DNA from: Gemmatimonadota bacterium
Lineage (GTDB): Bacteria; Gemmatimonadota; Gemmatimonadetes; Palauibacterales; Palauibacteraceae
Length of the DNA stretch: 64,000 nucleotides
NCBI GenBank assembly: GCA_963666735.1
Contig: OY762926.1
Span: forward strand, 352,001 to 416,000
Direction: 5' to 3'
This document shows, in pieces, positions 21,825 to 33,105 of the stretch. The notes below the pieces were generated by a model. That model was not told the DNA's origin, ran no database searches, and worked only from the letters and a program-made list of their open reading frames with translations. Made by a program: the position numbers and the translations under genes. The first letter of the stretch is position 1, and each line of letters opens with the position of its first letter.

Positions 21825-22066
21825 GCGAAGATCTCCCTGCGGGCAGGAGGCGGCTTGCGCAAGACATGTGGCGGGACTTCAACGTGGCTTGCGGGCGCAC
21901 TCGGCGGGCACACTCATCAGGGACATCCCGGCCGGTCTCCCCGGGGGGGCGGGGCACGCCGGTTTGTCTGGCGACATCCCTCGCTGCGTCGCTAGCTTCT
22001 CTGCCGTCGGGGACTCCGGGTGTTCCCTTACGCGATGAGAAACGCGACCAATCCGAAGGGGGATCC

Positions 22067-25000
22067 ATGGTGCCCAAGAAGCCCTGCCTGCCAACGCTCA
22101 GTGCCCCGGCCGCGTTACTTCTCGGACTGGTCATTTCGGGCTGCTCGGAGAGGGACCTAGACTCGCTGGGACCCGCACCTTCTCCCAGCAGTGGAGAGGT
22201 CTACCTCGACGGTTTCTCCCCCGGCCTGGAGTACCACGCCTTCGGCGGCTCCAAGGTCGATGCGCTGGACATCGATGAGACCGGCGGCCGCGCCGGTACC
22301 CCCAGCCTGAAGTTCACGATTCCGCTGCCGAACGATCCCGCCGGCGGCTACGCGGGCGGCGTATTCGTCGGCAGGCCGCCCCGCGATCTTTCCGTCTTCA
22401 CCGCGCTCACTTTCTGGACCCGGGCGAGGCAGGCGGCCACGCTCAACACCGTGGGCTTCGGCAACGACAACAGCGGCAATTCCAGATTCCCCGCCGAAGC
22501 GGGAGATGTGACCGTGTCGACGACGTGGAGCAAGGTCATCCTCCCCATCCCGGACCCCTCGAAACTGAGCGGCGAAGGCGGTCTGTTCTACCTCGCCGAG
22601 GGGGCGGAAAACAACCAGGGCAACGAGATCTGGTTCGATGAGGTCCGGTTCGAGGACATCCGGACCATCGCCAACCCGAGGCCGGCCATCGCCAGCGCGG
22701 ACATCGCGGGCGAACCCGGCGGCACGGCTCAGGTGATGGGAACGCAGATCACCTACGACGTGGCCGGCGAGGACCGGGTGATGAAGGCGAGCCCGGCCTA
22801 CTTCAGCTTCGGTTCCTCGGATCCGGGCGTGGTCACGGTCGACGCCGACGGAAAAATGACGTTCATCGGGCTGGGCACGGCGACCGTGACCGCCTCCCTC
22901 GGTTCGGTGCGGGCCGCCGGGACCGTCACGGTGAACGTGGGCGCCGCACCCGATGGCGGCCCGCCGGCTCCGGCGCGGCCCGCCGAGAATGTGATTTCGC
23001 TCTTCAGCGACGTGTACGACGACGTCACGGTGGACACCTGGTCGGCCGAGTGGGATCAGGCGGACTTCGAGGATGTGCAGCTTGCCGGCGACAACGCCAA
23101 GAAGTACTCGAACCTCGCGTTCGCCGGGATCGAGTTCACTTCGGCGCCGGTCGACGCTTCCGACATGAGCCATTTCCACTTCGATCTGTGGACTGGCGAT
23201 GAGACGGCGCCGCCGGCCGCGTTCAGGGTGAAACTCGTGGACTTCGGAGCCGACGGCTCGTTCGGCGGTGACGACGACAGCGAGCACGAGATCACGCTGA
23301 CCGCGGAATCGGGTCTCGCATCGCGAACATGGGTGAGTTTCGATGTGCCGTTGACGGACTTTGCGGGCTTGAGGGCCAGATCCAGCCTGGCGCAGCTCAT
23401 CATCTCGGGCGATCCGAACACGATCTATCTCGACAACATCTACTTCTGGGGCGAGGGCGCGCCTCCGCCCCCGCCTCCACCGCCGCCGGGCGCGATGGCG
23501 CCGGAGGAGCCGGCTCCGGCTCCCGAGCGTTCCGCGGATGACGTGATCTCCTTGTTCAGCGACGCCTACGAGGACGTGACGGTGGACACCTGGTCGGCGG
23601 AGTGGGACCAGGCGGATGTCGAGGACATCCAGGTGGCGGGCGACAACGTGAAGAAGTACTCGAACCTCGTGTTCGCGGGGATCGAGTTCACGTCGGCGCC
23701 GGTCGACGCCTCGGCGATGACGCACTTCCACCTGGATGTGTGGACGCCGGACCCGACGGCGGATCCGGCCGCCCTCAGGGTGAAGCTGGTCGACTTCGGC
23801 CCGAACGGGGTGCACGACGGCGGCGGAGACGACAGCGAACACGAGCTGTCGCTCACGGCAGCCTCGACGACGCCGTTGGCGACGGGGATGTGGCTGAGCT
23901 ACGACCTCGCGTTCGAGGAGATGTCGGGCCTCGCGGCGCGGGCGAGTCTCGCTCAGCTGATCATCTCGGGCGACCCGAACACGATCTTCGTCGACAACGT
24001 CTACTTCTGGGGCGAGAGCGCCCCGGCCCCGTCCGAGCCGCCGGTGGCGGCGCCGACGCCGAGCGTCGCGGCGGGCGACGTGATTTCGTTGTTCAGCGAC
24101 GCCTACGAGGACGTGACGGTGGACACCTGGTCGGCGGAGTGGGACCAGGCGGATGTCGAGGACATCCAGGTGGCGGGCGACAACGTGAAGAAGTACTCGA
24201 GCCTCGCGTTCGCGGGGATCGAGTTTACGTCGGCGCCGGTCGACGCCTCGGCGATGACGCACTTCCACCTGGACGTGTGGACGCCGGACCCGACGGCGGA
24301 TCCGGCCGCGTTCAGGGTGAAGCTGGTCGACTTCGGCCCGAACGGGGTGCACGACGGCGGCGGAGACGACAGCGAACACGAACTGTCGCTCACGGCAGCC
24401 TCGACGCCGCCGTTGGCGACGGGGATGTGGCTGAGCTACGACCTCGCGTTCGAGGAGATGTCGGGCCTCGCGGCGCGGGCGAGTCTGGCTCAGCTGATCA
24501 TCTCGGGCGACCCGAACACGATCTTCGTCGACAACGTCTACTTCTGGGGCGAGCGCGCCCCGGCCCCGTCCGAGCCGCCGGTGGCGGCGCCGACGCCGAG
24601 CGTCGCGGCGGGCGACGTGATTTCGTTGTTCAGCGACGCCTACGAGGACGTGGCTGTGGACACCTGGTCGGCGGATTGGGACCAGGGAGACGTCGCGGAT
24701 GTCGAGGTCGACGGGAATGCGGCGAAAATGTACTCGAACGTCGCCTTCGTGGGTGTGGAGTTCACATCGGCGCCGGTCGATGCCTCCGAGATGACCCACT
24801 TCCATATCGACCTCTGGACGGCGGACGAGACGGCCGATCCGGCGGCGTTCCGGGTCAAGCTGGTCGACTTCGGGGCCAACGGCGTGCATGACGGCGGGGG
24901 CGATGACAGCGAGCACGAGCTGTCGCTCACTGCGACCTCCGACCCGCCGCTGGCGACGGGGGTTTGGCTGAGCTACGACATCCCGCTGGCCGACTTCTCC

Positions 25001-25096
25001 GGTCTCGCCGAGACGGGCCATCTGGCGCAGCTGATCTTCTCGGGCGATCTGGGGGCCTTCTGGATCGACAACGTCTACTTCCGTCGCGACCAATGA
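22067..25096 (+). CDS. Multidomain lipoprotein: beta-sandwich domain, Ig-like (Big_2) domain and four putative glycan-binding repeats
   Basis: Lipobox ISGC; SSDPGVVTVDADG..T..G.GTATVTA Ig motif; four AP.P....DVISLFSD.Y...THFH.D.WT...VKLVDFG...DN.YF units separated by Pro-rich linkers; adjacent to GH16. Confidence 0.8.
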   Translation: MVPKKPCLPTLSAPAALLLGLVISGCSERDLDSLGPAPSPSSGEVYLDGFSPGLEYHAFGGSKVDALDIDETGGRAGTPSLKFTIPLPNDPAGGYAGGVFVGRPPRDLSVFTALTFWTRARQAATLNTVGFGNDNSGNSRFPAEAGDVTVSTTWSKVILPIPDPSKLSGEGGLFYLAEGAENNQGNEIWFDEVRFEDIRTIANPRPAIASADIAGEPGGTAQVMGTQITYDVAGEDRVMKASPAYFSFGSSDPGVVTVDADGKMTFIGLGTATVTASLGSVRAAGTVTVNVGAAPDGGPPAPARPAENVISLFSDVYDDVTVDTWSAEWDQADFEDVQLAGDNAKKYSNLAFAGIEFTSAPVDASDMSHFHFDLWTGDETAPPAAFRVKLVDFGADGSFGGDDDSEHEITLTAESGLASRTWVSFDVPLTDFAGLRARSSLAQLIISGDPNTIYLDNIYFWGEGAPPPPPPPPPGAMAPEEPAPAPERSADDVISLFSDAYEDVTVDTWSAEWDQADVEDIQVAGDNVKKYSNLVFAGIEFTSAPVDASAMTHFHLDVWTPDPTADPAALRVKLVDFGPNGVHDGGGDDSEHELSLTAASTTPLATGMWLSYDLAFEEMSGLAARASLAQLIISGDPNTIFVDNVYFWGESAPAPSEPPVAAPTPSVAAGDVISLFSDAYEDVTVDTWSAEWDQADVEDIQVAGDNVKKYSSLAFAGIEFTSAPVDASAMTHFHLDVWTPDPTADPAAFRVKLVDFGPNGVHDGGGDDSEHELSLTAASTPPLATGMWLSYDLAFEEMSGLAARASLAQLIISGDPNTIFVDNVYFWGERAPAPSEPPVAAPTPSVAAGDVISLFSDAYEDVAVDTWSADWDQGDVADVEVDGNAAKMYSNVAFVGVEFTSAPVDASEMTHFHIDLWTADETADPAAFRVKLVDFGANGVHDGGGDDSEHELSLTATSDPPLATGVWLSYDIPLADFSGLAETGHLAQLIFSGDLGAFWIDNVYFRRDQ
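22946..25081 (+). repeat. Four intragenic domain repeats (spacing 552, 537, 537 bp)
   Basis: GACGT(C/G)(ACG/GCT)GTGGACACCTGGTCGGC anchor at 23021, 23573, 24110 and 24647; copies 2 and 3 are nearly identical in DNA. Confidence 0.95.
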
Positions 25097-25947
25097 GCGG
25101 CGTGTGCGCGGTGACTCGGTTCGGATCCATCGCGAGAGCCTGTTCCGGAATGGGGCCGCTGGCGGCCCTGGTCGTCATCTCGGCGGGGTGCGGCGGCGAG
25201 GAGGAGCCCACGGCCCCGAGCCCGGCGCAGCTGATTTGGGAGGATGAATTCGATGGGCCGGCCGGCCAGTTGCCGGACCCGTCGCGCTGGGCGTTCGACA
25301 TCGGCACCGATTGGGGAAACCGGCAACTCGAGTTCGACACGGACCGTCCCGAAAACGTCTCCCTCGATGGGAACGGGAACCTGGCCATCACCGCTCGTCG
25401 CGAGGCTTTCAGCGGCAGTCAGTTCACGTCGGGCCGGATCAAGACCCAGCGGCTCTTCGAACAGGCCTATGGGCGTTTCGAGGCCCGCATCGACCTCCCC
25501 GCGGGCCGGGGCATCTGGCCCGCCTTCTGGCTGTTGGGCGCCGACATCGACACGGTCGGCTGGCCGGAGTGTGGCGAGATCGACGTGATGGAGTTCCGGG
25601 GGCAGGAACCGTCGGTCGTCCATGGCAGCCTGCACGGGCCGGGCTACTCGGCCGGCAACGCCGTGACGGCGCGCTACGCGCTGAACAACGACCGCTTCGA
25701 CACGGGCTTTCACACCTTCGCCGTCGAGTGGACCGAAGACCGGATCGAGTGGTTCGTGGACGGAGAGCGCTACCAGTCGGTCGGGCGTGACGACGTGCCG
25801 GGGCGCTGGGCCTACGACCACCCCTTCTTCATCATCCTGAATGTGGCGGTGGGCGGCGGCTTCGTCGGCCCGCCGGGCGAAGGCACGACCTTCCCGCAGA
25901 CGATGCTCGTCGACTGGGTGCGCGTCTACGGAATCGACGACTCGTGA
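25093..25947 (+). CDS. GH16 beta-1,3-glucanase (laminarinase-like) lipoprotein
   Basis: WEDEFDG, GIWPAFWLLG, catalytic GEIDVME, NVAVGG and VDWVRVY motifs; SAGC lipobox; ATGA overlap. Confidence 0.92.
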   Translation: MSGVCAVTRFGSIARACSGMGPLAALVVISAGCGGEEEPTAPSPAQLIWEDEFDGPAGQLPDPSRWAFDIGTDWGNRQLEFDTDRPENVSLDGNGNLAITARREAFSGSQFTSGRIKTQRLFEQAYGRFEARIDLPAGRGIWPAFWLLGADIDTVGWPECGEIDVMEFRGQEPSVVHGSLHGPGYSAGNAVTARYALNNDRFDTGFHTFAVEWTEDRIEWFVDGERYQSVGRDDVPGRWAYDHPFFIILNVAVGGGFVGPPGEGTTFPQTMLVDWVRVYGIDDS

Positions 25948-28007
25948 CCCACCGCACGGCCCCCGGCGACCGGATCTCCTTTCCGCACAAGATCGTCTAC
26001 GGGGTCGGCGGATTCGTAAACAACCTCCTTGCGCAGGGAATCGGCGGGATGACCGTCGTGCTCACGCTGGCCCTCGGCATGGATTTCCGGCTCGTGGGCC
26101 TGCTCGGCATGCTGCCGAGGTTCTTTGACGCGATCACGGACCCGCTCGTCGGTTTCGTCTCCGACCGGACGCGCTCCCGGTGGGGTCGGCGCCGACCGTT
26201 CCTGTTCGTTGGAGCGATCCTCTCCGGCGTCATCTTCGCGCTCCTGTGGCAGATGCCCGCGCCGACCCAGTTTCGGATCAAGCTGGTCGATTATGGCGCC
26301 GACGGGGTGTACAGCGGCGATGTCACCGGCGAGCCGGTCAGCATATTCGAAGCCGTTGGAGAATCGCTGCGCGACATCGTGACCATCGAAGTCACGGACG
26401 ATGTCGAGGACGAGGTCGCAATTCTTCCCCCGACGCTCGTCACCGGTGGCTGGGTCGGAATCGACGTGCCGCTCTCCGATTTCGACGAGCTCACCACGCG
26501 CGGGCACCTGTCCCAGATCCTGATTTCGGGCGACCTCACCGAAGTGTACGTCGACAACGTCTATCTCTATCGGACGGACGACACGGCGAGAGTGACGGTC
26601 TCGGGCGAGGACCGGGAAGGCCGCACGGCGCCGGACGTGCCCGCGCCCGTCCCCGCGTACCCGGCCGACAATGTGATCTCGTTCTTCAGCAACGAGTATG
26701 ACGATGTGCAGGTGGACTTCTGGTCCACGGACTGGGACGAGGCCGACGTGAGGGACGCCGGGGCCGCCGGCGACGACGTCAAGCACTACACCAACCTGAG
26801 GTTCGCCGGCATCGACTTCGGCCGGCAGCCGGTGGACGCCGGCGCCATGACGCATATCCATATGGATATCTGGACGCCGGAGACCACCGGCGAGGGCCGC
26901 AGTCAGGCGTACTATTTTTGGTACTTTCTGGTCGGGTCGCTGATCTTTTTCCTTGCTTACACCATCTTCGCCACGCCCTGGGTGGCGCTGGGGTACGAAC
27001 TCACGCCCGATTTCCATGAGCGCACGCGCCTCATGGGCGTGCAGAACTTCGTCGGGAACATCGCCTTCGTGATCGCTCCGTGGTTCCTCGTCGTAATGAC
27101 GAATCCGGCGTGGTTCCGGAACCAGATGGCCGGGGCCAGATTCCTGGCGCTCGGGATCTGCGTGACCGTCATCGCACTCGGGGTGCTGCCGGCGCTCTTC
27201 CTCCGCGAGCGGATCCCCGCGACGGCGGGGAACGAAGAGCGGAGCAGTGGACGCGAAGCCGTGGGCGAGTTCTTCGGAGGCCTCTGGCAGACGGTTCGAA
27301 CCGGCCCCTTCCTTCTGCTCTGCGTCGCGACCTTCCTGATCTTCAACAGCTTCATCATGATCTCGGCATTCCAGTTCTGGGTGTTCGTGTACTACGTCTC
27401 CGGCGGCAGCGTGGCGGACGGAGCGTCGCTAGCCGGACTTGTGGGCACGCTCGGCATCGTCGCCGGATTCGCGGTGATCGCGATCGTGACCTGGCTGGGT
27501 ACGAAGATCGGTAAGCGGAACGCCTTCTTCATCTCCACCGGGATCTCGATGTTCGGCTATGCGCTGAAATGGTTCTGCTACCACCCCGAATATCCCATGC
27601 TCACCCTGCTTCCGGCTCCCTTTCTGGCCTTCGGGCTGGGCGGCCTGTTCACACTGATGGGATCGATGATCGCGGACGTGGTGGACCTCGATGAGCTGAA
27701 CACGGGCGAGCGGCGCGAGGGGATGTTCGGGTCGGTGTACTGGTGGGTCGTAAAGGTGGGACAGAGCATCGCGCTGGGAGCGGGAGGCTTCCTGCTCGCC
27801 TCGACGGGACTCGATATCGACCTCGGCGCGAACCAGGCCGCGCGGACCATCACTCTACTGCGGGCGTACGACGCCTTCATACCCTTGATCGCTTCCGCGA
27901 TCGCGATCTTCGCGATCTACAAGTACCCGGTCACGGAGAGTACCGCCCTCAAGGTGCGGGCGCAGCTGGAGGAGCGGAGAGGGGCTGGCGCGGCAGCCGC
28001 CACCTGA
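25944..28007 (+). CDS. GPH/MFS sugar:cation symporter with an inserted, circularly permuted glycan-binding repeat
   Basis: FDAITDP..G..SDRTRSRWGRRRPF, ELTPDFHERTRL and ADVVDLDELNTGERREG motifs; ~205-aa soluble insert at 26271-26882 homologous to the lipoprotein repeats. Confidence 0.9.
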   Translation: MTHRTAPGDRISFPHKIVYGVGGFVNNLLAQGIGGMTVVLTLALGMDFRLVGLLGMLPRFFDAITDPLVGFVSDRTRSRWGRRRPFLFVGAILSGVIFALLWQMPAPTQFRIKLVDYGADGVYSGDVTGEPVSIFEAVGESLRDIVTIEVTDDVEDEVAILPPTLVTGGWVGIDVPLSDFDELTTRGHLSQILISGDLTEVYVDNVYLYRTDDTARVTVSGEDREGRTAPDVPAPVPAYPADNVISFFSNEYDDVQVDFWSTDWDEADVRDAGAAGDDVKHYTNLRFAGIDFGRQPVDAGAMTHIHMDIWTPETTGEGRSQAYYFWYFLVGSLIFFLAYTIFATPWVALGYELTPDFHERTRLMGVQNFVGNIAFVIAPWFLVVMTNPAWFRNQMAGARFLALGICVTVIALGVLPALFLRERIPATAGNEERSSGREAVGEFFGGLWQTVRTGPFLLLCVATFLIFNSFIMISAFQFWVFVYYVSGGSVADGASLAGLVGTLGIVAGFAVIAIVTWLGTKIGKRNAFFISTGISMFGYALKWFCYHPEYPMLTLLPAPFLAFGLGGLFTLMGSMIADVVDLDELNTGERREGMFGSVYWWVVKVGQSIALGAGGFLLASTGLDIDLGANQAARTITLLRAYDAFIPLIASAIAIFAIYKYPVTESTALKVRAQLEERRGAGAAAAT

Positions 28008-28036: not shown

Positions 28037-29923
28037 TCAGGAGGCTTCCGCTCGCCCTGCCCCGGGGCGAGAGCCCATGGTGAGTCCATAGCCGACGGGG
28101 AACCGCGTCTCGTCCGGTTCGCCCCGGGCAACATCGTTCGCGGGCCATGTGTGGGCGAGGCGGCCCTGGAACTCGTGGTCGCCGAACAGCACTTCGGCGA
28201 CGCCGGCTCCCTCCGAGCCCGGCAGCCAGGCAGCCACGAACGCGTCCGCCGCCTCCAGTTCCTCCGTGACGACCAGCGGCCGCCCGGAAACGAGGACGGC
28301 CACCACCCGGATACCTCGGGCTCTCAGCGACCGAATGGTAGCGAGGTCCTCGGGGTGCAGCCGCGATAGCCGCAGGGTGTCGCCGTAGGGGCGAAGACGG
28401 GCGGGGCCCGGGGCGGGGGGCTGGACCTCGTCCGCGCCCGGAGCTTCCGGAGGAGGCGCAGTCCAATCTCGGATGTCGCCCGGACCCTCGGCGTAGGGTT
28501 CTTCTCCGATCACGACGATGGCCACTTCAAAGTGTCCGTCGTCCTCCGCCCCATCGTTCTCGCCCAACCGTTGCGCGCGCGGTGCGATCTGCCTGATGCC
28601 CTCCCAGACGGACGCGCCCCCCTCGATCCGGCCGTTCCCCCGCACGCCCTGCCATTCCACCGTGAAGCCCCCGCACAACGCCCCTCGATCATGCGCGTTG
28701 CGCCCCGCGACGAGTATCCGGGCGTCGCGGTGGAGCGGGAGGACACTCTCTTCATTCTTCAGCAAAACCAGCGACTTTCGTACGGCCTCTCTCGCCACCT
28801 CGCGGTGGCCCGCGGACCCGAAGCTGGCGTGGTTCGACCACTTTCGGGCGGCCGGACGCGGTTGGTCGAAGAGTCCGCAAGCCTCCTTTACGGCGAGGAT
28901 CCGCCCCGCCGCATCATCGATGCGCGCTTCGTCCACGGCACCCGCCTCCACCTGTCTCACGACTTCCGAGATGAACCGCGGCCATTGTTCCGGAACCATG
29001 AAGAGGTCGATCCCCGCGCTGACCGACCTGCGGACGGCCTCACCGAAATCGTCCGAGATCGCGAAGATGCCGTTCCAGTCCGACACGACGAACCCGGAGA
29101 AGCCCAGCTCGCCCTTGAGCACATCCGTGATGAGATACCGGTGCTCGTGACACAGGACCCCCTTCCAGCTGCTGAGCGAGACCATGACGGCGAGAGCGCC
29201 GACTTCCAGTGCCGGGACATACGGAGACAGGTGCGTTCTCCGCAGCTCCGCCTCCTCCGCCAGGGTCTGCCCCTGATCCACGCCGTCCATCGTGCCGCCG
29301 TCTCCGGCCCAGTGCTTCGGACAGGCGAGGACCCCGTCATCGCCGAAACCCGCCTGCAGACCCCGGACGATCCGCGGAGCGTATTCCGCGACGAGATCCG
29401 GCACTTCGGAGAAGCTCTCGTAGCTTCGGCCCCAGCGGCAGTCACCGGCGACGGCCAGCGTGGGCGCCAGATTCCAGTCCAGCCCGGTCGCCAGCACCTC
29501 CCGGGCGGTCACGCGGGCGATGCGTTCCACGAGTGCCGGGTCGTGAGCCGCGCCCAGGCCGATATTGTGTGGGAAGACGGTGGCGCCGAGGACATTGTTG
29601 TGCCCGTGGACGGCGTCCACCGCGTAGATGAGAGGGATGCCGGGCTGTCCGTCCCACCCCTCCGTCGAGGCGGCCCAGTAGGCGTCGTTCGTTGCGACCC
29701 AGTCCGCGGGGCGGTTGCGGCCGGGGAGTGAGCCCGCGCCGCTGAGGACCGAACCCACACCGAAGCGGCGGACCTGCTCAGGCGAGATGTGCAGCCTCTC
29801 GGCCTGCACCATCTGCGCGGCCTTGCGCGGAAGGCTGAGCCGCGAGAGAAGGCGCGCGACACGCGTCGATGGCTTCACCTGCGGGGGTCGGAACGATGCC
29901 TGGCGGTTGGGCCGGCCACTCAC
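28037..29923 (-). CDS. GH3 beta-glucosidase / beta-glucan exohydrolase, no evident signal peptide
   Basis: DAVHGHNN, RWGRSYES, KHWAGDGGT, nucleophile VSDWN, GEEPYAE and AWLPGSEG motifs; GTGA overlap with the upstream gene. Confidence 0.92.
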   Translation of the reverse strand: MSGRPNRQASFRPPQVKPSTRVARLLSRLSLPRKAAQMVQAERLHISPEQVRRFGVGSVLSGAGSLPGRNRPADWVATNDAYWAASTEGWDGQPGIPLIYAVDAVHGHNNVLGATVFPHNIGLGAAHDPALVERIARVTAREVLATGLDWNLAPTLAVAGDCRWGRSYESFSEVPDLVAEYAPRIVRGLQAGFGDDGVLACPKHWAGDGGTMDGVDQGQTLAEEAELRRTHLSPYVPALEVGALAVMVSLSSWKGVLCHEHRYLITDVLKGELGFSGFVVSDWNGIFAISDDFGEAVRRSVSAGIDLFMVPEQWPRFISEVVRQVEAGAVDEARIDDAAGRILAVKEACGLFDQPRPAARKWSNHASFGSAGHREVAREAVRKSLVLLKNEESVLPLHRDARILVAGRNAHDRGALCGGFTVEWQGVRGNGRIEGGASVWEGIRQIAPRAQRLGENDGAEDDGHFEVAIVVIGEEPYAEGPGDIRDWTAPPPEAPGADEVQPPAPGPARLRPYGDTLRLSRLHPEDLATIRSLRARGIRVVAVLVSGRPLVVTEELEAADAFVAAWLPGSEGAGVAEVLFGDHEFQGRLAHTWPANDVARGEPDETRFPVGYGLTMGSRPGAGRAEAS

Positions 29924-32900
29924 ATGGCGATGTGGACGTACGTCCGGATCTCCCACTCGCTCCCGTCATCGCCCGAGCGTCCCGGCTCGCAGGTGGCGAA
30001 GCCGTTGGCGTCGACCGACGGGGCGGCGCAGTAACGGGGTGAATTCATGTCCAGCGACCGCCATCCGGCCCGGATTCCGAACCGTGTCCCCGGCATGTCG
30101 AACCAGCCCGGCCGGCCCAGGGAGTAGGAAAGGTCGGCCATCAACTGAAGCGGGAACGTGTGGTTGAAGTCGCGGTGATAGTCGTAGGGTCCCCAGTCGT
30201 TCACCCTCGCGAACGTTTCCAGCTTGAGCGGCCCGCTGATCGCCCGCAGTTGGATCCCATGCCGGCGGATGAGACGCTGGCTGTCTCCGTTCGGCTCGCC
30301 GGTCCCCGTGTAGATGTTGGCGATGAAGCCGGAACTGCCGGTCCGCTTGGAGACGAGGCGGGCGTTCACCTCCCACACGTCCCGCGCGGGCGGGGCGCCC
30401 GGGAAGGCGAAGATGGATCGTCCATCGGCCAGGATCCCGATCCCCGCGTCCTGCGTTGTGCCGAAGCTCTTGTAAGTGAATCCGACGGTGGCCGCGAAGG
30501 CCGCATCCTCGCGTATGTCGCTGTCCCACGAGTGCATCCACGTCGCGGGCGTGGGGTCGTAGGTGAGGAGGAACTCCAGCGCTCTCGTCTCCCGGTTCCA
30601 TCCGCGGACGGCGAACGGGTCGTCGACGACGTTGCGCGGACGCGCCGGCGCCGGGGCGTCCGCCGGAACCGGTCCCACGATCGGCCTCTGCCACAGGAAA
30701 TTGGGCGCGATCTGCCAGTTGCCCGCGTTCAGGGCCACGCCCGTGAGGACGTTGTACTGGTTTCCCATCCCGCTGTCGCGCAGCCACCAGCCGGTGAAGG
30801 TCTGCGTCGCGGTGGGCCCGCCCTCCGCGACCAGGCCCATCGCGGCCCCCTGGACGTACCAGTTCCAGCGGCCCCTGGTGAGAGTGAGCTTGGCCTTGGC
30901 GCCGAACGCATCCCTCGCCTCGATCTGGTCTCCGAGCACCTCGTAGCTTCCAGGGTCGCCGCGCACGATCTGGAACGCCTGCCCCTCCTTGGTGGATCCG
31001 GACCAGATGCCGCCCACCTCGATCACGGCGTCGCCGCGAGTGGCGGCAACGTGCACGGTCGCCTTGCGGGTCGGGGGCAGCGGCACGGCGAACGAACTCG
31101 CCACGGCCCCCTGTTCGGCGAGGTCCTCCTGATAGACGACCGTCGTCTGGAACGGCCCCACGTTCTTCGTCAGCTTGCCGAGGACCGCCGGATTCGCGCC
31201 CCACCAGAGTTCGGGACCGAACGCCACGGACAGACCGTCGAACAGTCTCTTGCCCTCGATCTCCACTCCCAGCGGCGCCATGCCGTTGTAGATGTCGATA
31301 TTCGGACCGTAGTTGGCCTCGCGGTACAGTCCGAAGAAGTCTCCCTCGTAGCCCCAGTGATAGTGGCCGGTGCGATAGAAGCCGTTGAGGCGGAACCATG
31401 AATCGTCCCACGACAGATTCGCCTGGTAGACCTTCAGCCGTTCGAGGTCGCCGAGAACGAACTGTTCGCCGTCGGCCTCCACGGTGCGGGGCCGCCCGCG
31501 GTTCTCGTAGAAGATCTCGTCGATGGGGTTGTTCGGGACCGCCCCGAGCACGTTGACGATGACTTCGCCCTCAATGCCTCCGGCCGGCCGCGCCGTGATG
31601 CCGCCGTAGAACGACTGCAGCTGGTCGAAGCCCCGGAACGATGGCCGCCCACGCGAGACGGTTGGGGCATCCTCCGGAGTGCTGATGACCGAACCGCCGG
31701 TGCTGAACGTCTCGAACTCCGCCCGCAGACTACTCACCTGGAAGCGATCGAGGATCGAGGAACTGAACGCCGCCCGGTCGCCGCGCGCCTGAAGCTCGGC
31801 CGTCTCGGGCATGATCGACGCAAAATGCCGCCCGATCGTCTCCATCGTCGTCCCCGGCCCGTAGGGATCGAGTTCGTAGACGTCGCGGAGGGCATAGTAC
31901 GCGGCGCGCGGGAACAGTTCGTACAGGCCCTCGTGGTCCGTCGGTCCCTTCGCGACGATACCCCACCACTCCTCGTTCATGTTGTTCTGGCCGGGCACGT
32001 AGTCGTCGGGATACGCATCGTTGGCCCAGGAGGCGTTCGTGTCCTGGACATCGAGGTTGTCCTCCTGCCCGAACTTCCACCAGCCGTCCGTCCACTGGAA
32101 CGTCATCCCGCCGATGGAATTGCCCACGCCGCCCTTGCCGGCGGACTCTTCGTAAATCTCCTGCCACTGGTCGAGGAGATAGCGTGTCTGCATGAGCTGG
32201 TCTTCGCGCATCGCGCGCGCGTTCCACACGTCCGCTCCGAACTCCGTGAACAGCACGCCCATCCCGAGCTTCTCGTCGACTTCCTCGAAGAAATCGTTGA
32301 ACGACCGGCCGCGGTACACGTTCGCGCCGAGGACGTCGAGGTTCCCCGCCTCCTCGGCGATGAGGTCGATGTACTGCAGGTCGCCGTTCGCGTAGGCCAC
32401 GGGACGCGTGGGATCCATCTCCTTGATGAGCTCCGTCGCGTCCCCGACGAGCGAGTACAGGTAACGGGCGCGGCCGATGTCCCGCTCGCCCTCCGGCATG
32501 TCCTCGGTCTCCGCCGAGCTCCAGAAAAGACCGTAGTTGTTCTCGTTGCCGAGCAGCCACATCAGCACGCCGGGCGTGTCCCTGAACGCCTCCACCATGT
32601 CCTCGACCTCGGCGAGAACGACGGCGCGGGATGCGGGGTCCGCGTAGTTGGTGTTGGCCTCGAACACGCCGTTGACCGTCACGCCGTAGCGGCCGAGCGC
32701 GTGGTTGAGGACGGTCCAGATGCCGTAGTTCTCCCAGATGTACTCGACCCACTCCGGCGTAATCCCGACGTAGGCCCGAATCGCGTTGACTCCCATCGCC
32801 CTGGCGAGACCCATCTCCCGGTCGAGCGCCGCCTTGATCAGGTCGTCCGACTCGGTCCAGAAGTTGTAGTTGTAGGTCGTGCCGCGGGGGAAGTAATCCC

Positions 32901-33105
32901 AGTTAATGCCGAGGACCATGAAGTCGTCGCCGTCCACCTGCAGCCTGATCCCGCTGTCGTCCCTCACGAGTTCAATCCCGGGGAGCGGAGGATCGGCGGA
33001 TTGCGCTGCGACACCGGGGAGACCGAACAGGGCGATCGACACGACAAGGGCGCTCCCGAGGCCGAGGAGGCGCTGCCGGAGTCGGGGGAAAGTCGCGCCG
33101 GGCAT
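29920..33105 (-). CDS. Clan GH-A (GH2-TIM-like) glycoside hydrolase fused to a probable outer-membrane beta-barrel
   Basis: Signal peptide; LLGNENNYG (acid/base) and FTEFGAD (nucleophile); C-terminal ~600 aa of aromatic-rich amphipathic strands ending WEIRTYVHIAM. Confidence 0.7.
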   Translation of the reverse strand: MPGATFPRLRQRLLGLGSALVVSIALFGLPGVAAQSADPPLPGIELVRDDSGIRLQVDGDDFMVLGINWDYFPRGTTYNYNFWTESDDLIKAALDREMGLARAMGVNAIRAYVGITPEWVEYIWENYGIWTVLNHALGRYGVTVNGVFEANTNYADPASRAVVLAEVEDMVEAFRDTPGVLMWLLGNENNYGLFWSSAETEDMPEGERDIGRARYLYSLVGDATELIKEMDPTRPVAYANGDLQYIDLIAEEAGNLDVLGANVYRGRSFNDFFEEVDEKLGMGVLFTEFGADVWNARAMREDQLMQTRYLLDQWQEIYEESAGKGGVGNSIGGMTFQWTDGWWKFGQEDNLDVQDTNASWANDAYPDDYVPGQNNMNEEWWGIVAKGPTDHEGLYELFPRAAYYALRDVYELDPYGPGTTMETIGRHFASIMPETAELQARGDRAAFSSSILDRFQVSSLRAEFETFSTGGSVISTPEDAPTVSRGRPSFRGFDQLQSFYGGITARPAGGIEGEVIVNVLGAVPNNPIDEIFYENRGRPRTVEADGEQFVLGDLERLKVYQANLSWDDSWFRLNGFYRTGHYHWGYEGDFFGLYREANYGPNIDIYNGMAPLGVEIEGKRLFDGLSVAFGPELWWGANPAVLGKLTKNVGPFQTTVVYQEDLAEQGAVASSFAVPLPPTRKATVHVAATRGDAVIEVGGIWSGSTKEGQAFQIVRGDPGSYEVLGDQIEARDAFGAKAKLTLTRGRWNWYVQGAAMGLVAEGGPTATQTFTGWWLRDSGMGNQYNVLTGVALNAGNWQIAPNFLWQRPIVGPVPADAPAPARPRNVVDDPFAVRGWNRETRALEFLLTYDPTPATWMHSWDSDIREDAAFAATVGFTYKSFGTTQDAGIGILADGRSIFAFPGAPPARDVWEVNARLVSKRTGSSGFIANIYTGTGEPNGDSQRLIRRHGIQLRAISGPLKLETFARVNDWGPYDYHRDFNHTFPLQLMADLSYSLGRPGWFDMPGTRFGIRAGWRSLDMNSPRYCAAPSVDANGFATCEPGRSGDDGSEWEIRTYVHIAM

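Follow-up and report, generated by a model that had tools for sequence, protein, structure and literature searches.

A stretch of about 211 residues (aa 107-317; 26262-26894) interrupts a GPH/MelB-type sugar:cation symporter of a Gemmatimonadota bacterium between its third and fourth transmembrane helices (TM3 and TM4). By sequence comparison, this stretch is a circularly permuted homolog of the repeat found in tandem in a neighboring lipoprotein, and it covers the whole of that domain once. The gene lies in the window (the whole stretch of 64,000 nucleotides that was analyzed, positions 352,001 to 416,000 of contig OY762926.1). With binding read from the gene context, we lean slightly toward a symporter whose permuted repeat domain captures oligosaccharides for import. 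The features concerned are listed here by position in the window, with strand and basis.

21866..25096, + strand: lipoprotein with lipobox LVISGC and four tandem native-order repeats (ORF, HMM domains, N-terminus)
24964..25947, + strand: GH16 beta-glucanase with lipobox VISAGC (Pfam Glyco_hydro_16, E 7e-27)
25944..28007, + strand: GPH/MelB-type sugar:cation symporter gene, 687 aa (ORF list, Pfam MFS_2, TIGR00792, MelB alignment)
25980..26246, + strand: TM1-TM3, aa 13-101 (AF2 helices H13-44, H48-75, and H84-101; aligned to MelB 3-95)
26262..26582, + strand: B half of the permuted domain, aa 107-213, equivalent to native HMM 80-165, five predicted strands (hmmsearch, AF2)
26322..26396, + strand: extra loop of about 25 residues in the B half, aa 127-151 (BLASTP gap opposite the lipoprotein; low pLDDT)
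26583..26660, + strand: linker, aa 214-239, between the C-terminus and the N-terminus of the native repeat (colinear with the lipoprotein linker)
26661..26894, + strand: A half of the permuted domain, aa 240-317, equivalent to native HMM 3-80, five predicted strands (hmmsearch i-E 1e-30, AF2)
26904..27920, + strand: TM4-TM12, aa 321-659 (AF2 helices; Pfam MFS_2 profile 92-427; MelB 110-432)
28037..29956, - strand: GH3 beta-glucosidase-type enzyme (Pfam GH3 N and C domains)
29920..33105, - strand: 1061-aa secreted protein with a signal peptide (Pfam)

The symporter, its cassette and the native repeat

The symporter gene begins with a GTG codon that overlaps the stop codon of the GH16 gene (GTGA). 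Its product belongs to the Pfam MFS_2 family (E 2e-58; the score is 198 bits, where 27 is required), the match being split in two around the insert, with the second part (aa 320-665) equivalent to profile positions 92-427. The TIGR00792 (gph) model also matches (E 9e-46), at 156 bits against the curated NCBI value of 231, a shortfall that arises because the insert splits the match. In the alignment with MelB, D62 and D66 correspond to MelB D55 and D59, and the loop 2-3 motif RSRWGRRRP to MelB RSRWGKFKP; D62, D66, and the stretch R79-P85 are invariant among 59 homologs, which gives the protein both the TM2 aspartates and the basic motif of the GPH family. The full-length AF2 model (mean pLDDT 82.8, pTM 0.79) contains 12 long helices, as expected of a twelve-TM transporter, in addition to short amphipathic ones. 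Profile, helix count, and motifs together assign the protein to the GPH:cation symporter family, and sugar:cation symport is its predicted activity.

The repeats of the lipoprotein were located by HMM at aa 370-535, 554-722, 733-901, and 912-1076; the same protein has a weak Ig-like match (Pfam Big_2/Big-like) and a match to Pfam ChiC that stays below threshold (E 1.7e-4; 22 bits, where 27 is required). The GH16 protein is also matched by NCBIfam beta-glucanase models, below their cut-offs. Inspection of the N-terminus of the GH3 enzyme, whose adjacency to the transporter is conserved in related loci, revealed no hydrophobic signal sequence. The 1061-aa protein has a weak match to a GH2-type TIM barrel and a C-terminal part of about 600 aa without a family; the ESM Atlas offers DUF6029 as a lead. 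In loci of Bacteroidota, its orthologs (51-58% identity) lie immediately upstream of the repeat protein. The transporter occurs together with GH16, GH3, and tandem-repeat lipoproteins in loci of Gemmatimonadota, Bacteroidota, and Ignavibacteriota. The repeat lipoprotein, GH16, the symporter, GH3, and the 1061-aa secreted protein form a beta-glucan utilization cassette, whose substrate is probably laminarin.

A native repeat matched nothing in Pfam (E up to 10), and one repeat searched by phmmer had no match among PDB sequences. NCBIfam gave no match to the lipoprotein, and a profile of 41 repeat sequences found no related entry among PDB sequences at E up to 10. Its only matches, an 'A654L protein' (3qb8, E 0.051) and the discoidin-domain receptors 2 (7aym, E 0.58) and 1 (6fer, E 1), were judged to be due to chance. 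The ESM Atlas neighbors of the native repeat are unnamed clusters that serve as leads, a minority of their members having CBM_11 (12%) or CBM_4_9 (13%). Across Pfam, the PDB profile, Foldseek, and VIA, no CBM family matched either the native repeat or the insert.

A permuted repeat domain in loop TM3-TM4

The symporter aligns with MelB residues 3-95 ahead of the insert and with residues 110-432 behind it, which places the insert in loop TM3-TM4. Lysine and arginine occur 18 times in the 90 residues of the predicted cytoplasmic loops versus once in the 31 residues of the periplasmic ones, and the insert itself contains 12 K/R versus 43 D/E. The MelB alignment and this charge bias suggest that the insert faces the periplasm. 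An earlier examination of the letters and open reading frames (hereafter, the sequence-only reading) had proposed both this loop and a periplasmic location for it, and the alignment and predicted topology agree with it on both points.

In the lipoprotein, all four repeats run from an A half to a B half, and the last repeat forms the C-terminus of the protein, which confirms that A-B is the native order. A native-repeat HMM of 169 positions was built from these four repeats. On the symporter, its positions 80-100 match aa 106-126, positions 102-165 match aa 152-212, and positions 3-80 match aa 240-317. Positions 80-165 precede positions 3-80, so the two halves are reversed, as had been proposed, and the insert therefore represents exactly one repeat period in a shifted register. 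The proposed alignment of the halves to the repeats gave a single colinear BLASTP match, in which symporter aa 107-317 pair with lipoprotein aa 450-633 (92 of 212 positions identical, 43%; E 8e-50), i.e., with the B half of repeat 1, the linker, and the A half of repeat 2. Further alignments extend over lipoprotein residues 634-812 (E 2e-44) and 813-991 (E 5e-41). The insert is opened inside a native loop, between WTPDPTAD and PAAFRVK; its N-terminal end retains PTQFRIK and its C-terminal end retains WTPETTGE. Traces of the inter-repeat linker also persist (APDVPAPVPAYPADNVIS versus APEEPAPAPERSADDVIS), in a linker (aa 214-239) whose length varies between homologs. This remnant and the colinear alignment bear out the earlier suggestion that the captured piece spans two tandem repeats.

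The same permuted order was found in 47 of 47 transporter rows, which represent 41 distinct genes, six loci being present twice. In contrast, the 325 native-repeat domains in 114 other proteins of the same loci are all in native order. The extent given in the sequence-only reading (26271-26882, aa 110-313) lies just inside the boundaries found here, and needed only slight widening; the extra loop of about 25 residues had been overlooked. According to BLASTP, this loop has no counterpart in the native lipoprotein repeats, and its pLDDT is below 50 in both models (model residues 23-48 of the insert model, and aa 126-151 of the full-length model).

In the AF2 model of aa 104-319 (pLDDT 83.4, pTM 0.81), both halves are predicted to belong to a single beta domain of ten strands, as the sequence-only reading had anticipated. 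When the halves were modeled as separate chains, the median ipSAE was 0.56 versus 0.00 for the best control, with a contact agreement of at least 94% between runs and a partner pLDDT of at least 70. This counts as weak support. Of 157 solved complexes, 116 reach that mark, as do 2 of 215 mismatched pairs; the range up to 0.60, however, holds only 18 of the 157 solved complexes together with both passing mismatches. Foldseek found no PDB match to the insert model at E <= 0.001, and VIA-align found none at Z >= 5 among 48,161 representative chains, the best VIA score being Z 4.9 for a CBM of Cel9A; CBM32 and CBM35 scored Z 3.3-3.7. Permuted topology would be expected to depress the scores of sequential aligners; these structure searches thus neither name nor exclude a fold family.

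Proposed role, conservation and origin of the insert

Homologs both with and without the insert were found, in line with the search that had been proposed. Orthologs without it, which are 57-66% identical and occur in the same cassette, join cleanly at the insertion site (LWQLPA followed directly by GRSE) and have a TM3-TM4 loop of 4 residues. The present architecture arose from such a loop. One repeat-length piece of a tandem beta-sandwich array, cut in a shifted register (second half, linker, first half), entered it, and is predicted to refold as one complete permuted domain because the piece amounts to a whole repeat period. The old termini are tied by the old inter-repeat linker, and the new termini lie at the site of a 9-residue native loop. 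In MFS transporters, TM3 and TM4 are both part of the N-terminal six-helix bundle. With both anchors in this bundle, the domain would ride on one rigid body and leave the rocker-switch movement unblocked, presumably beside the outward-facing cavity. From the gene context, the domain may bind beta-1,3-gluco-oligosaccharides released by GH16 and retain them close to the entrance of the symporter, so that their local concentration rises, as with a tethered substrate-binding domain; after import, the oligosaccharides could be cleaved by GH3, which is apparently cytoplasmic. Capture is thus proposed from gene context, no known CBM family having been matched.

The same loop accommodates unrelated domains in related metagenomic transporters (P0128, P0131, and P0132), including a WD40-type propeller; P0128 is known from a single contig. 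An insert of the P0132 type was not found in 401 sampled Bacteroidota genomes, of which 68 contain an ortholog, with no match covering query residues 113-285. Comparison of the native-repeat profile with P0131 and P0132 by hhalign gave a probability of <1%. We tentatively raise the possibility that loop TM3-TM4 of this GPH subfamily is a general periplasmic slot for accessory domains (a permuted CBM-like domain, a WD40-type propeller, and a beta-rich domain), giving MFS symporters with built-in substrate capture. Three different domains in the same loop of related transporters also indicate that the loop may be an engineerable site.

The insert retains much of the native repeat, along with several changes at positions that are otherwise nearly invariant. 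Fifty-six native positions are conserved at >=80%, and 39 of these 56 have the same residue at >=80% in the inserts. Trp27, present in 97% of native repeats, is found in 68% of inserts, with Pro or Arg instead, and His105 declines from 90 to 28%. Glu54 is replaced by Asp in 98% of inserts, Phe91 by Tyr in 93%, and D21/T22 are also replaced. If the changed residues (W27, H105, E54, and D21/T22) line the binding site, binding or specificity may have altered. Replacements that were fixed after the change, as at positions 54 and 91, would fit a new interaction surface. The insert could, in that case, be a protein-docking module for the repeat lipoprotein, the GH16 lipoprotein, or the 1061-aa protein, channeling products without free diffusion. 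Its descent from a domain that is itself repeated in the partner lipoprotein, the persistence of the cassette genes together across phyla, and the presence in this loop of related transporters of a propeller, which is a fold typical of protein interaction, would all suit such a role. However, retention of 39 of the 56 conserved native positions would be expected if the original function had been kept, and we regard docking as unlikely.

A role other than an aid to capture could also follow from where the insert is anchored. In MelB, TM4 lines the sugar site. The MelB alignment places the insert beside TM4, and the transporter-specific loop (aa 127-151), for which a helix is predicted with low confidence, could touch the membrane domain, so that the insert might act as a regulatory lid or sensor of the outward-facing cavity or of substrate availability. 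The dN/dS of this loop is erratic, however (0.11-1.13), which does not suggest a precise gate, and we give this role little credence.

Estimated by NG86 over 14 pairs, dN/dS is 0.14-0.48 for the insert, 0.18-0.77 for the linker, and 0.07-0.23 for the TM core. The faster evolution of the insert relative to the core, the unrelated domains in the same permissive loop, and the orthologs that function without an insert in the same cassette are what a tolerated passenger would lead one to expect, i.e., a stable and harmless fold with no present function. In contrast, the dN/dS values of the insert itself show that it is under purifying selection, and its architecture is conserved: the same break occurs in all 41 distinct genes seen, which are spread over two orders of the class, and no decayed or truncated insert was seen in the loci examined. 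A mere passenger is accordingly quite improbable, and capture of oligosaccharides remains the role that we favor.

Among the protein clusters listed (60-100% identity), 117 of 120 are 674-759 aa long with a coverage of at least 95%. The insert-bearing symporter was found in 40 of 78 genome loci, all in Gemmatimonadota-labeled records, including complete chromosomes. The stretch 25900-27347 is covered by Logan contigs from two studies (0 and 2 differences), and contigs of a third study bridge both insert junctions, so that the proposed check of junction coverage gave crossing contigs from three studies. With the junctions thus present in 40 other genome loci and in the contigs of three independent studies, an open reading frame, and an insert merely 43% identical to the neighboring repeats, an assembly or annotation artefact (a chimeric contig or a frameshift) is refuted, in agreement with the sequence-only reading.

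The insert was gained once, long ago, in the ancestor of one Gemmatimonadota clade. A tree of the core with the insert removed (458 columns) groups all 25 insert-bearing rows in a single clade (SH-aLRT 99), which is nested within a set of 7 Gemmatimonadota-type rows that lack the insert, and in the domain tree, the 16 inserts form one clade with a support of 100. The position of the donor repeat is not assignable from the domain tree, in which support for the sister branch is only 53. The insert had been viewed as a copy of the present neighbor; instead, the trees show an old single acquisition common to the whole clade.

Comparison with known systems

To our knowledge, secondary sugar transporters are thought to depend on the membrane domain alone for finding their substrate. 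If the capture reading holds, the proteins described here would be the first MFS sugar symporters with a built-in substrate-capture domain that hands oligosaccharides to the outward-open cavity. Laminarin represents a large marine carbon flux, and a GPH symporter with a glycan-binding-type domain where it opens to the periplasm would provide a novel means of scavenging oligosaccharides at low concentration, for example laminarin fragments. Orthologs with and without the insert in the same cassette would amount to a natural experiment on what a tethered domain contributes to an MFS transporter. In a search of the literature on MFS transporters and symporters with a carbohydrate-binding or permuted loop domain (subscription journals and supplements lying outside its scope), the architecture was not found among the papers listed, and the term 'MFS' is absent from the relevant passages of a paper on marine Gemmatimonadota (PMC11316326). 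Within these sources, no description of a GPH symporter with a permuted repeat domain in a loop was found for this transporter class.

Like MelB and other GPH symporters (TC 2.A.2; PF13347; TIGR00792), the protein has twelve predicted TM helices, the RSRWG motif, and the aligned aspartates. MelB has few residues in loop 3-4, whereas the symporter in the window has a 211-residue beta domain there. In LacS, an extra domain is cytoplasmic and regulatory. According to the pertinent sections of a 2026 review, 400-550 aa is the rule for bacterial glycoside transporters, and LacS, likewise a GPH symporter to which a soluble domain has been added, is the only larger one named (PMC13543919). The IIA-like domain of LacS is C-terminal, whereas the domain described here lies in a loop, is predicted to be periplasmic, and derives from a repeat of a glycan locus.

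The extracellular domain of mammalian PepT1 and PepT2 is found in loop TM9-10. These MFS transporters (SLC15) have extracytoplasmic immunoglobulin-like beta-sandwich domains, as outlined in a section of PMC4597091. They differ from the symporter of the window in MFS family and in loop, and they are eukaryotic, transport peptides, and have no permutation.

Substrate-binding domains are fused to some ABC importers, and TRAP and TTT transporters depend on binding proteins, i.e., an extracytoplasmic module serves a membrane transporter. The logic proposed for the permuted insert is the same, in other superfamilies and folds; binding and hand-over are demonstrated in the ABC, TRAP, and TTT systems, whereas in the symporter they are inferred. 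If true, the symporter would be, among secondary transporters, the equivalent of an ABC importer that carries a fused binding domain.

The lipoprotein of the window resembles the laminarin-locus SGBP lipoprotein of Christiangramia forsetii, which occurs with GH16 and, in the sections concerned, is described as Ig-like modules followed by four laminarin-binding CBM repeats, each a beta-sandwich whose sheets have four or five strands (Zuhlke et al., bioRxiv 10.1101/2023.09.07.556657). The likeness described here is one of architecture; the repeat profile finds no related PDB sequence and no Pfam family. In its relevant sections, the same preprint does not mention a transporter with such a module (bioRxiv 10.1101/2023.09.07.556657).

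In the classical model, as presented in part of PMC3320104 (PLoS Comput Biol), circular permutation arises by duplication of tandem copies. The insert fits this model in that it corresponds to one period of a tandem array in a shifted register, and its former termini are connected by the former inter-repeat linker. The classical model trims a tandem fusion in place, whereas here the shifted period lies inside a loop of another gene, so that permutation and insertion are coupled. If this is correct, the symporter would be a natural case in which permutation through capture from a tandem array made a domain insertable, and one locus would illustrate both the array that can supply a permuted domain and, according to the model, new termini that suit insertion into a tight loop.

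The symporter cassette and the shifted repeat

The symporter belongs to a cassette, probably for beta-glucan use, in which the lipoprotein, GH16 and transporter genes form a tightly packed plus-strand trio, and the genes for GH3 and a 1061-aa protein converge from the minus strand.

Cassette genes in the window
21866-25096, +, tandem-repeat lipoprotein of 1076 aa (open reading frame; lipobox LVISGC read directly)
24964-25947, +, GH16 beta-glucanase (Pfam; lipobox VISAGC read directly)
25944-28007, +, GPH/MelB symporter of 687 aa (Pfam MFS_2)
28037-29956, -, GH3 (Pfam; N-terminus without a hydrophobic signal, read directly)
29920-33105, -, 1061-aa protein (signal peptide; weak GH2-type TIM-barrel match at aa 95-307)

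The GTG start of the transporter overlaps the GH16 stop at 25944-25947 (GTGA), which suggests translational coupling of glucanase and transporter. The C-terminal part of the 1061-aa protein (~600 aa) is without a family (Atlas lead: DUF6029). In many Bacteroidota loci the gene directly upstream of the one for the tandem-repeat protein encodes an orthologue (51-58% identity, ~96% coverage), which makes the 1061-aa protein an uncharacterised core component of the cassette; it might be the part located in the outer membrane or envelope.

The MFS_2 match to the transporter is broken in two, its second part covering aa 320-665 (profile positions 92-427). Residues 107-317, between TM3 and TM4, align colinearly and in a single piece with lipoprotein aa 450-633 (BLASTP, 92/212 identical, E 8e-50), and slightly less well with aa 634-812 and 813-991. 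Each of these lipoprotein stretches consists of the B half of one repeat, a proline-rich linker, and the A half of the next. An HMM built from the four native repeats of the lipoprotein finds four matches there, all in native order, with the last copy reaching the C-terminus. On the transporter, the same HMM matches at positions 80-100, 102-165, and then 3-80. The insert therefore spans one repeat period exactly, in a shifted register (B, linker, A). The native loop WTPDPTAD/PAAFRVK is split, with WTPETTGE at the C-terminal end of the insert and PTQFRIK at its N-terminal end, and remnants of the inter-repeat linker persist (APDVPAPVPAYPADNVIS vs APEEPAPAPERSADDVIS). The reversed order of the repeat halves, as proposed in the sequence-only reading, is therefore borne out by both the colinear alignment and the HMM order, but that reading did not note an extra loop of ~25 residues in the B half (aa 127-151; 26322-26396), which is absent from the native repeats. 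This transporter-specific loop has a low-confidence predicted helix and is moderately conserved among transporter copies.

Distribution and origin of the insert

In a word-indexed search over 5.8 billion proteins, 117 of the 120 clusters listed (60-100% identity) have lengths of 674-759 aa and coverage of at least 95%, and the few recorded names are MFS transporter of Candidatus Palauibacter or Gemmatimonadota. A locus scan with one genome per species returned 78 loci. The insert-bearing transporter is present in 40, all labelled Gemmatimonadota (Longimicrobiales, Palauibacter, unclassified); in 18 others (Bacteroidota, Ignavibacteriota, Gemmatimonadota) it is a tandem-repeat protein that holds the domain match, with an insert-less GPH orthologue (40-60% identity) nearby; and the remaining 20 have no GPH orthologue inside the fetched flank. 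When a broader native HMM is used, each of the 47 transporter rows (41 distinct genes, six loci being present twice) reads 80-165 then 2/3-80, and the 325 domains of the other 114 domain-bearing proteins in these loci are all in native order. Logan contigs from two studies span 25900-27347 with 0 and 2 differences, and short contigs of a related strain from a third study bridge each insert junction. The listed clusters, the 40 loci and the junction-spanning contigs uphold the earlier view that the gene is not an assembly chimera.

Orthologues with and without the insert were both found. Among 201 sampled genomes of the phylum, a transporter match is present in 14: 11 have the insert (the genome of the window, two of eight others in its genus, and eight from one family belonging to a different order of the class), and three have a close orthologue without it. 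In the latter, query residues 3-106 and 318-684 abut directly (ALLWQLPA/GRSENFYFW vs ALLWQMPA-(PTQFRIK...WTPETTGE)-GRSQAYYFW in the window), and the genes sit in the same cassette, with an adjoining tandem-repeat protein, GH16 and GH3.

In a maximum-likelihood tree of 58 transporters (458 core columns, insert columns removed), the 25 insert-bearing rows form one clade (SH-aLRT 99), nested in a group (98) that also includes seven insert-less rows and a single protein whose insert is different. In a tree of 204 domains, too, the 16 inserts are monophyletic (support 100), and their stem is long (0.30). The 77 native repeats that branch next to them are mostly from Gemmatimonadota; this sister relationship has a weak support of 53, so that the position of the donor repeat is not assignable. 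According to these trees, the insert is one old event and not a recent copy of the present neighbour.

Of the eight other genomes sampled from the window's genus, only two have the cassette, and Palauibacter copies occupy two separate places on the core tree among genes of another order; this patchiness and placement suggest horizontal movement of the locus. A Gemmatimonadota-type cassette also occurs on a contig binned as Candidatus Kuenenia stuttgartiensis (locus L058, 8258-9739 and neighbours). The symporter there lacks the insert and clusters with a gene from Gemmatimonadaceae (support 99); either the contig was misbinned or the genes were transferred.

Other domains occupy the same site. 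Exhaustive searching of 1.84 billion representatives with phmmer gave 11,478 matches at E <= 0.001 (818 at E <= 1e-30), in which the window's insert family is one full-length 50% representative. The metagenomic homologue P0128 (842 aa, single contig) has ~360 residues of WD40-type, propeller-type repeats between LWQMP and DFYFWWF, and the homologues P0132 (654 aa) and P0131 (840 aa) have one and two copies, respectively, of an unnamed ~170-residue domain with no profile similarity to the window's repeat. These inserts arise separately on the core tree, and no insert of the P0132 type turned up in 401 sampled Bacteroidota genomes. A further homologue, P0153 (789 aa), is an orthologous GPH symporter with GH17 fused at its C-terminus (Pfam E 2e-11); in the same Bacteroidota sample, 17 of 68 orthologue-bearing genomes have open frames of 782-821 aa at the symporter gene, which may be the same fusion.

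Predicted fold, topology and role

AlphaFold2, given a 59-row alignment, predicts aa 104-319 alone as a single domain of ten strands, five per half (mean pLDDT 83.4, pTM 0.81), with pLDDT below 50 only in the extra loop; the full-length model (pLDDT 82.8, pTM 0.79) has twelve long helices. The single domain expected earlier is thus predicted. The halves folded as separate chains give weak support: the median ipSAE is 0.56 (best control 0.00). Of 157 solved complexes, 116 attain this mark, as do 2 of 215 mismatches; values of 0.60 or under, however, include only 18 of the solved complexes and both of the mismatches that pass. At least 94% of contacts are shared between the two-chain runs, with partner pLDDT of at least 70.

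MelB (4m64) aligns on both sides of the insert (query 11-102 with MelB 3-95; 329-661 with 110-432), which therefore replaces MelB loop 3-4. MelB D55/D59 correspond in this alignment to D62/D66, both invariant across 59 homologues. Loops predicted to be cytoplasmic contain 18 K/R in 90 residues and those predicted to be periplasmic 1 in 31 (helix boundaries from the model); the insert itself has 12 K/R, 43 D/E and no cysteine. The MelB alignment and K/R bias support, as a prediction, the periplasmic location claimed earlier.

The native repeat has no Pfam family and no related PDB sequence by profile search. The insert model has no Foldseek match at E <= 0.001, and VIA gives the Cel9A CBM as best (Z 4.9), followed by lectins, CBM32 and CBM35 (Z 3.3-4.3), both being sequential aligners handicapped by permutation. 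Atlas neighbours of the native repeat are unnamed Gemmatimonadota/Bacteroidota clusters, a minority of whose members have CBM_11 or CBM_4_9. Gene context and general fold type thus point to a putative glycan-binding domain.

In the proposed mechanism, a shifted repeat period entered the 4-residue TM3-TM4 loop and refolds as a circularly permuted domain, which would ride on the N-terminal bundle because both TM3 and TM4 form part of one rigid body. There it would raise the concentration of GH16 products at the outward-facing cavity; GH3 would finish their breakdown inside the cell. Alternatively, the insert could serve for docking, act as a lid or sensor, or be carried as a passenger. The insert is under constraint: in 14 pairs, Nei-Gojobori dN/dS ranges over 0.14-0.48 in the insert (median about 0.23), 0.07-0.23 in the membrane core, and 0.18-0.77 in the linker. 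Native repeats have 56 positions conserved at >=80%, and at 39 of these the inserts, too, have the same residue at >=80%. Conservation falls at W27 (97% to 68%) and H105 (90% to 28%), E54 is replaced by D in 98% and F91 by Y in 93%, and D21/T22 are also changed; the window's own insert, read from the alignment, keeps W23 and W27 and has D at positions 54 and 105. Either a change in the binding site or a newly formed surface could account for these substitutions.

Comparison with known systems

The window's gene encodes a GPH symporter whose predicted periplasmic loop holds a permuted glycan-locus domain, and the literature search found no published match for a transporter with a circularly permuted CBM-like domain at such a site. 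A 2026 review of bacterial glycoside transporters (PMC13543919) gives MFS members as 400-550 aa, except LacS, whose IIA-like domain is C-terminal, in contrast to the insert between TM3 and TM4 described here. Mammalian PepT1/2 have Ig-like extracellular domains (PMC4597091). The best outside parallel to the repeat lipoprotein is the surface glycan-binding lipoprotein of C. forsetii, which has two Ig-like and four beta-sandwich laminarin-binding modules and is encoded in a GH16-containing locus (bioRxiv 10.1101/2023.09.07.556657); the likeness is one of build and locus.
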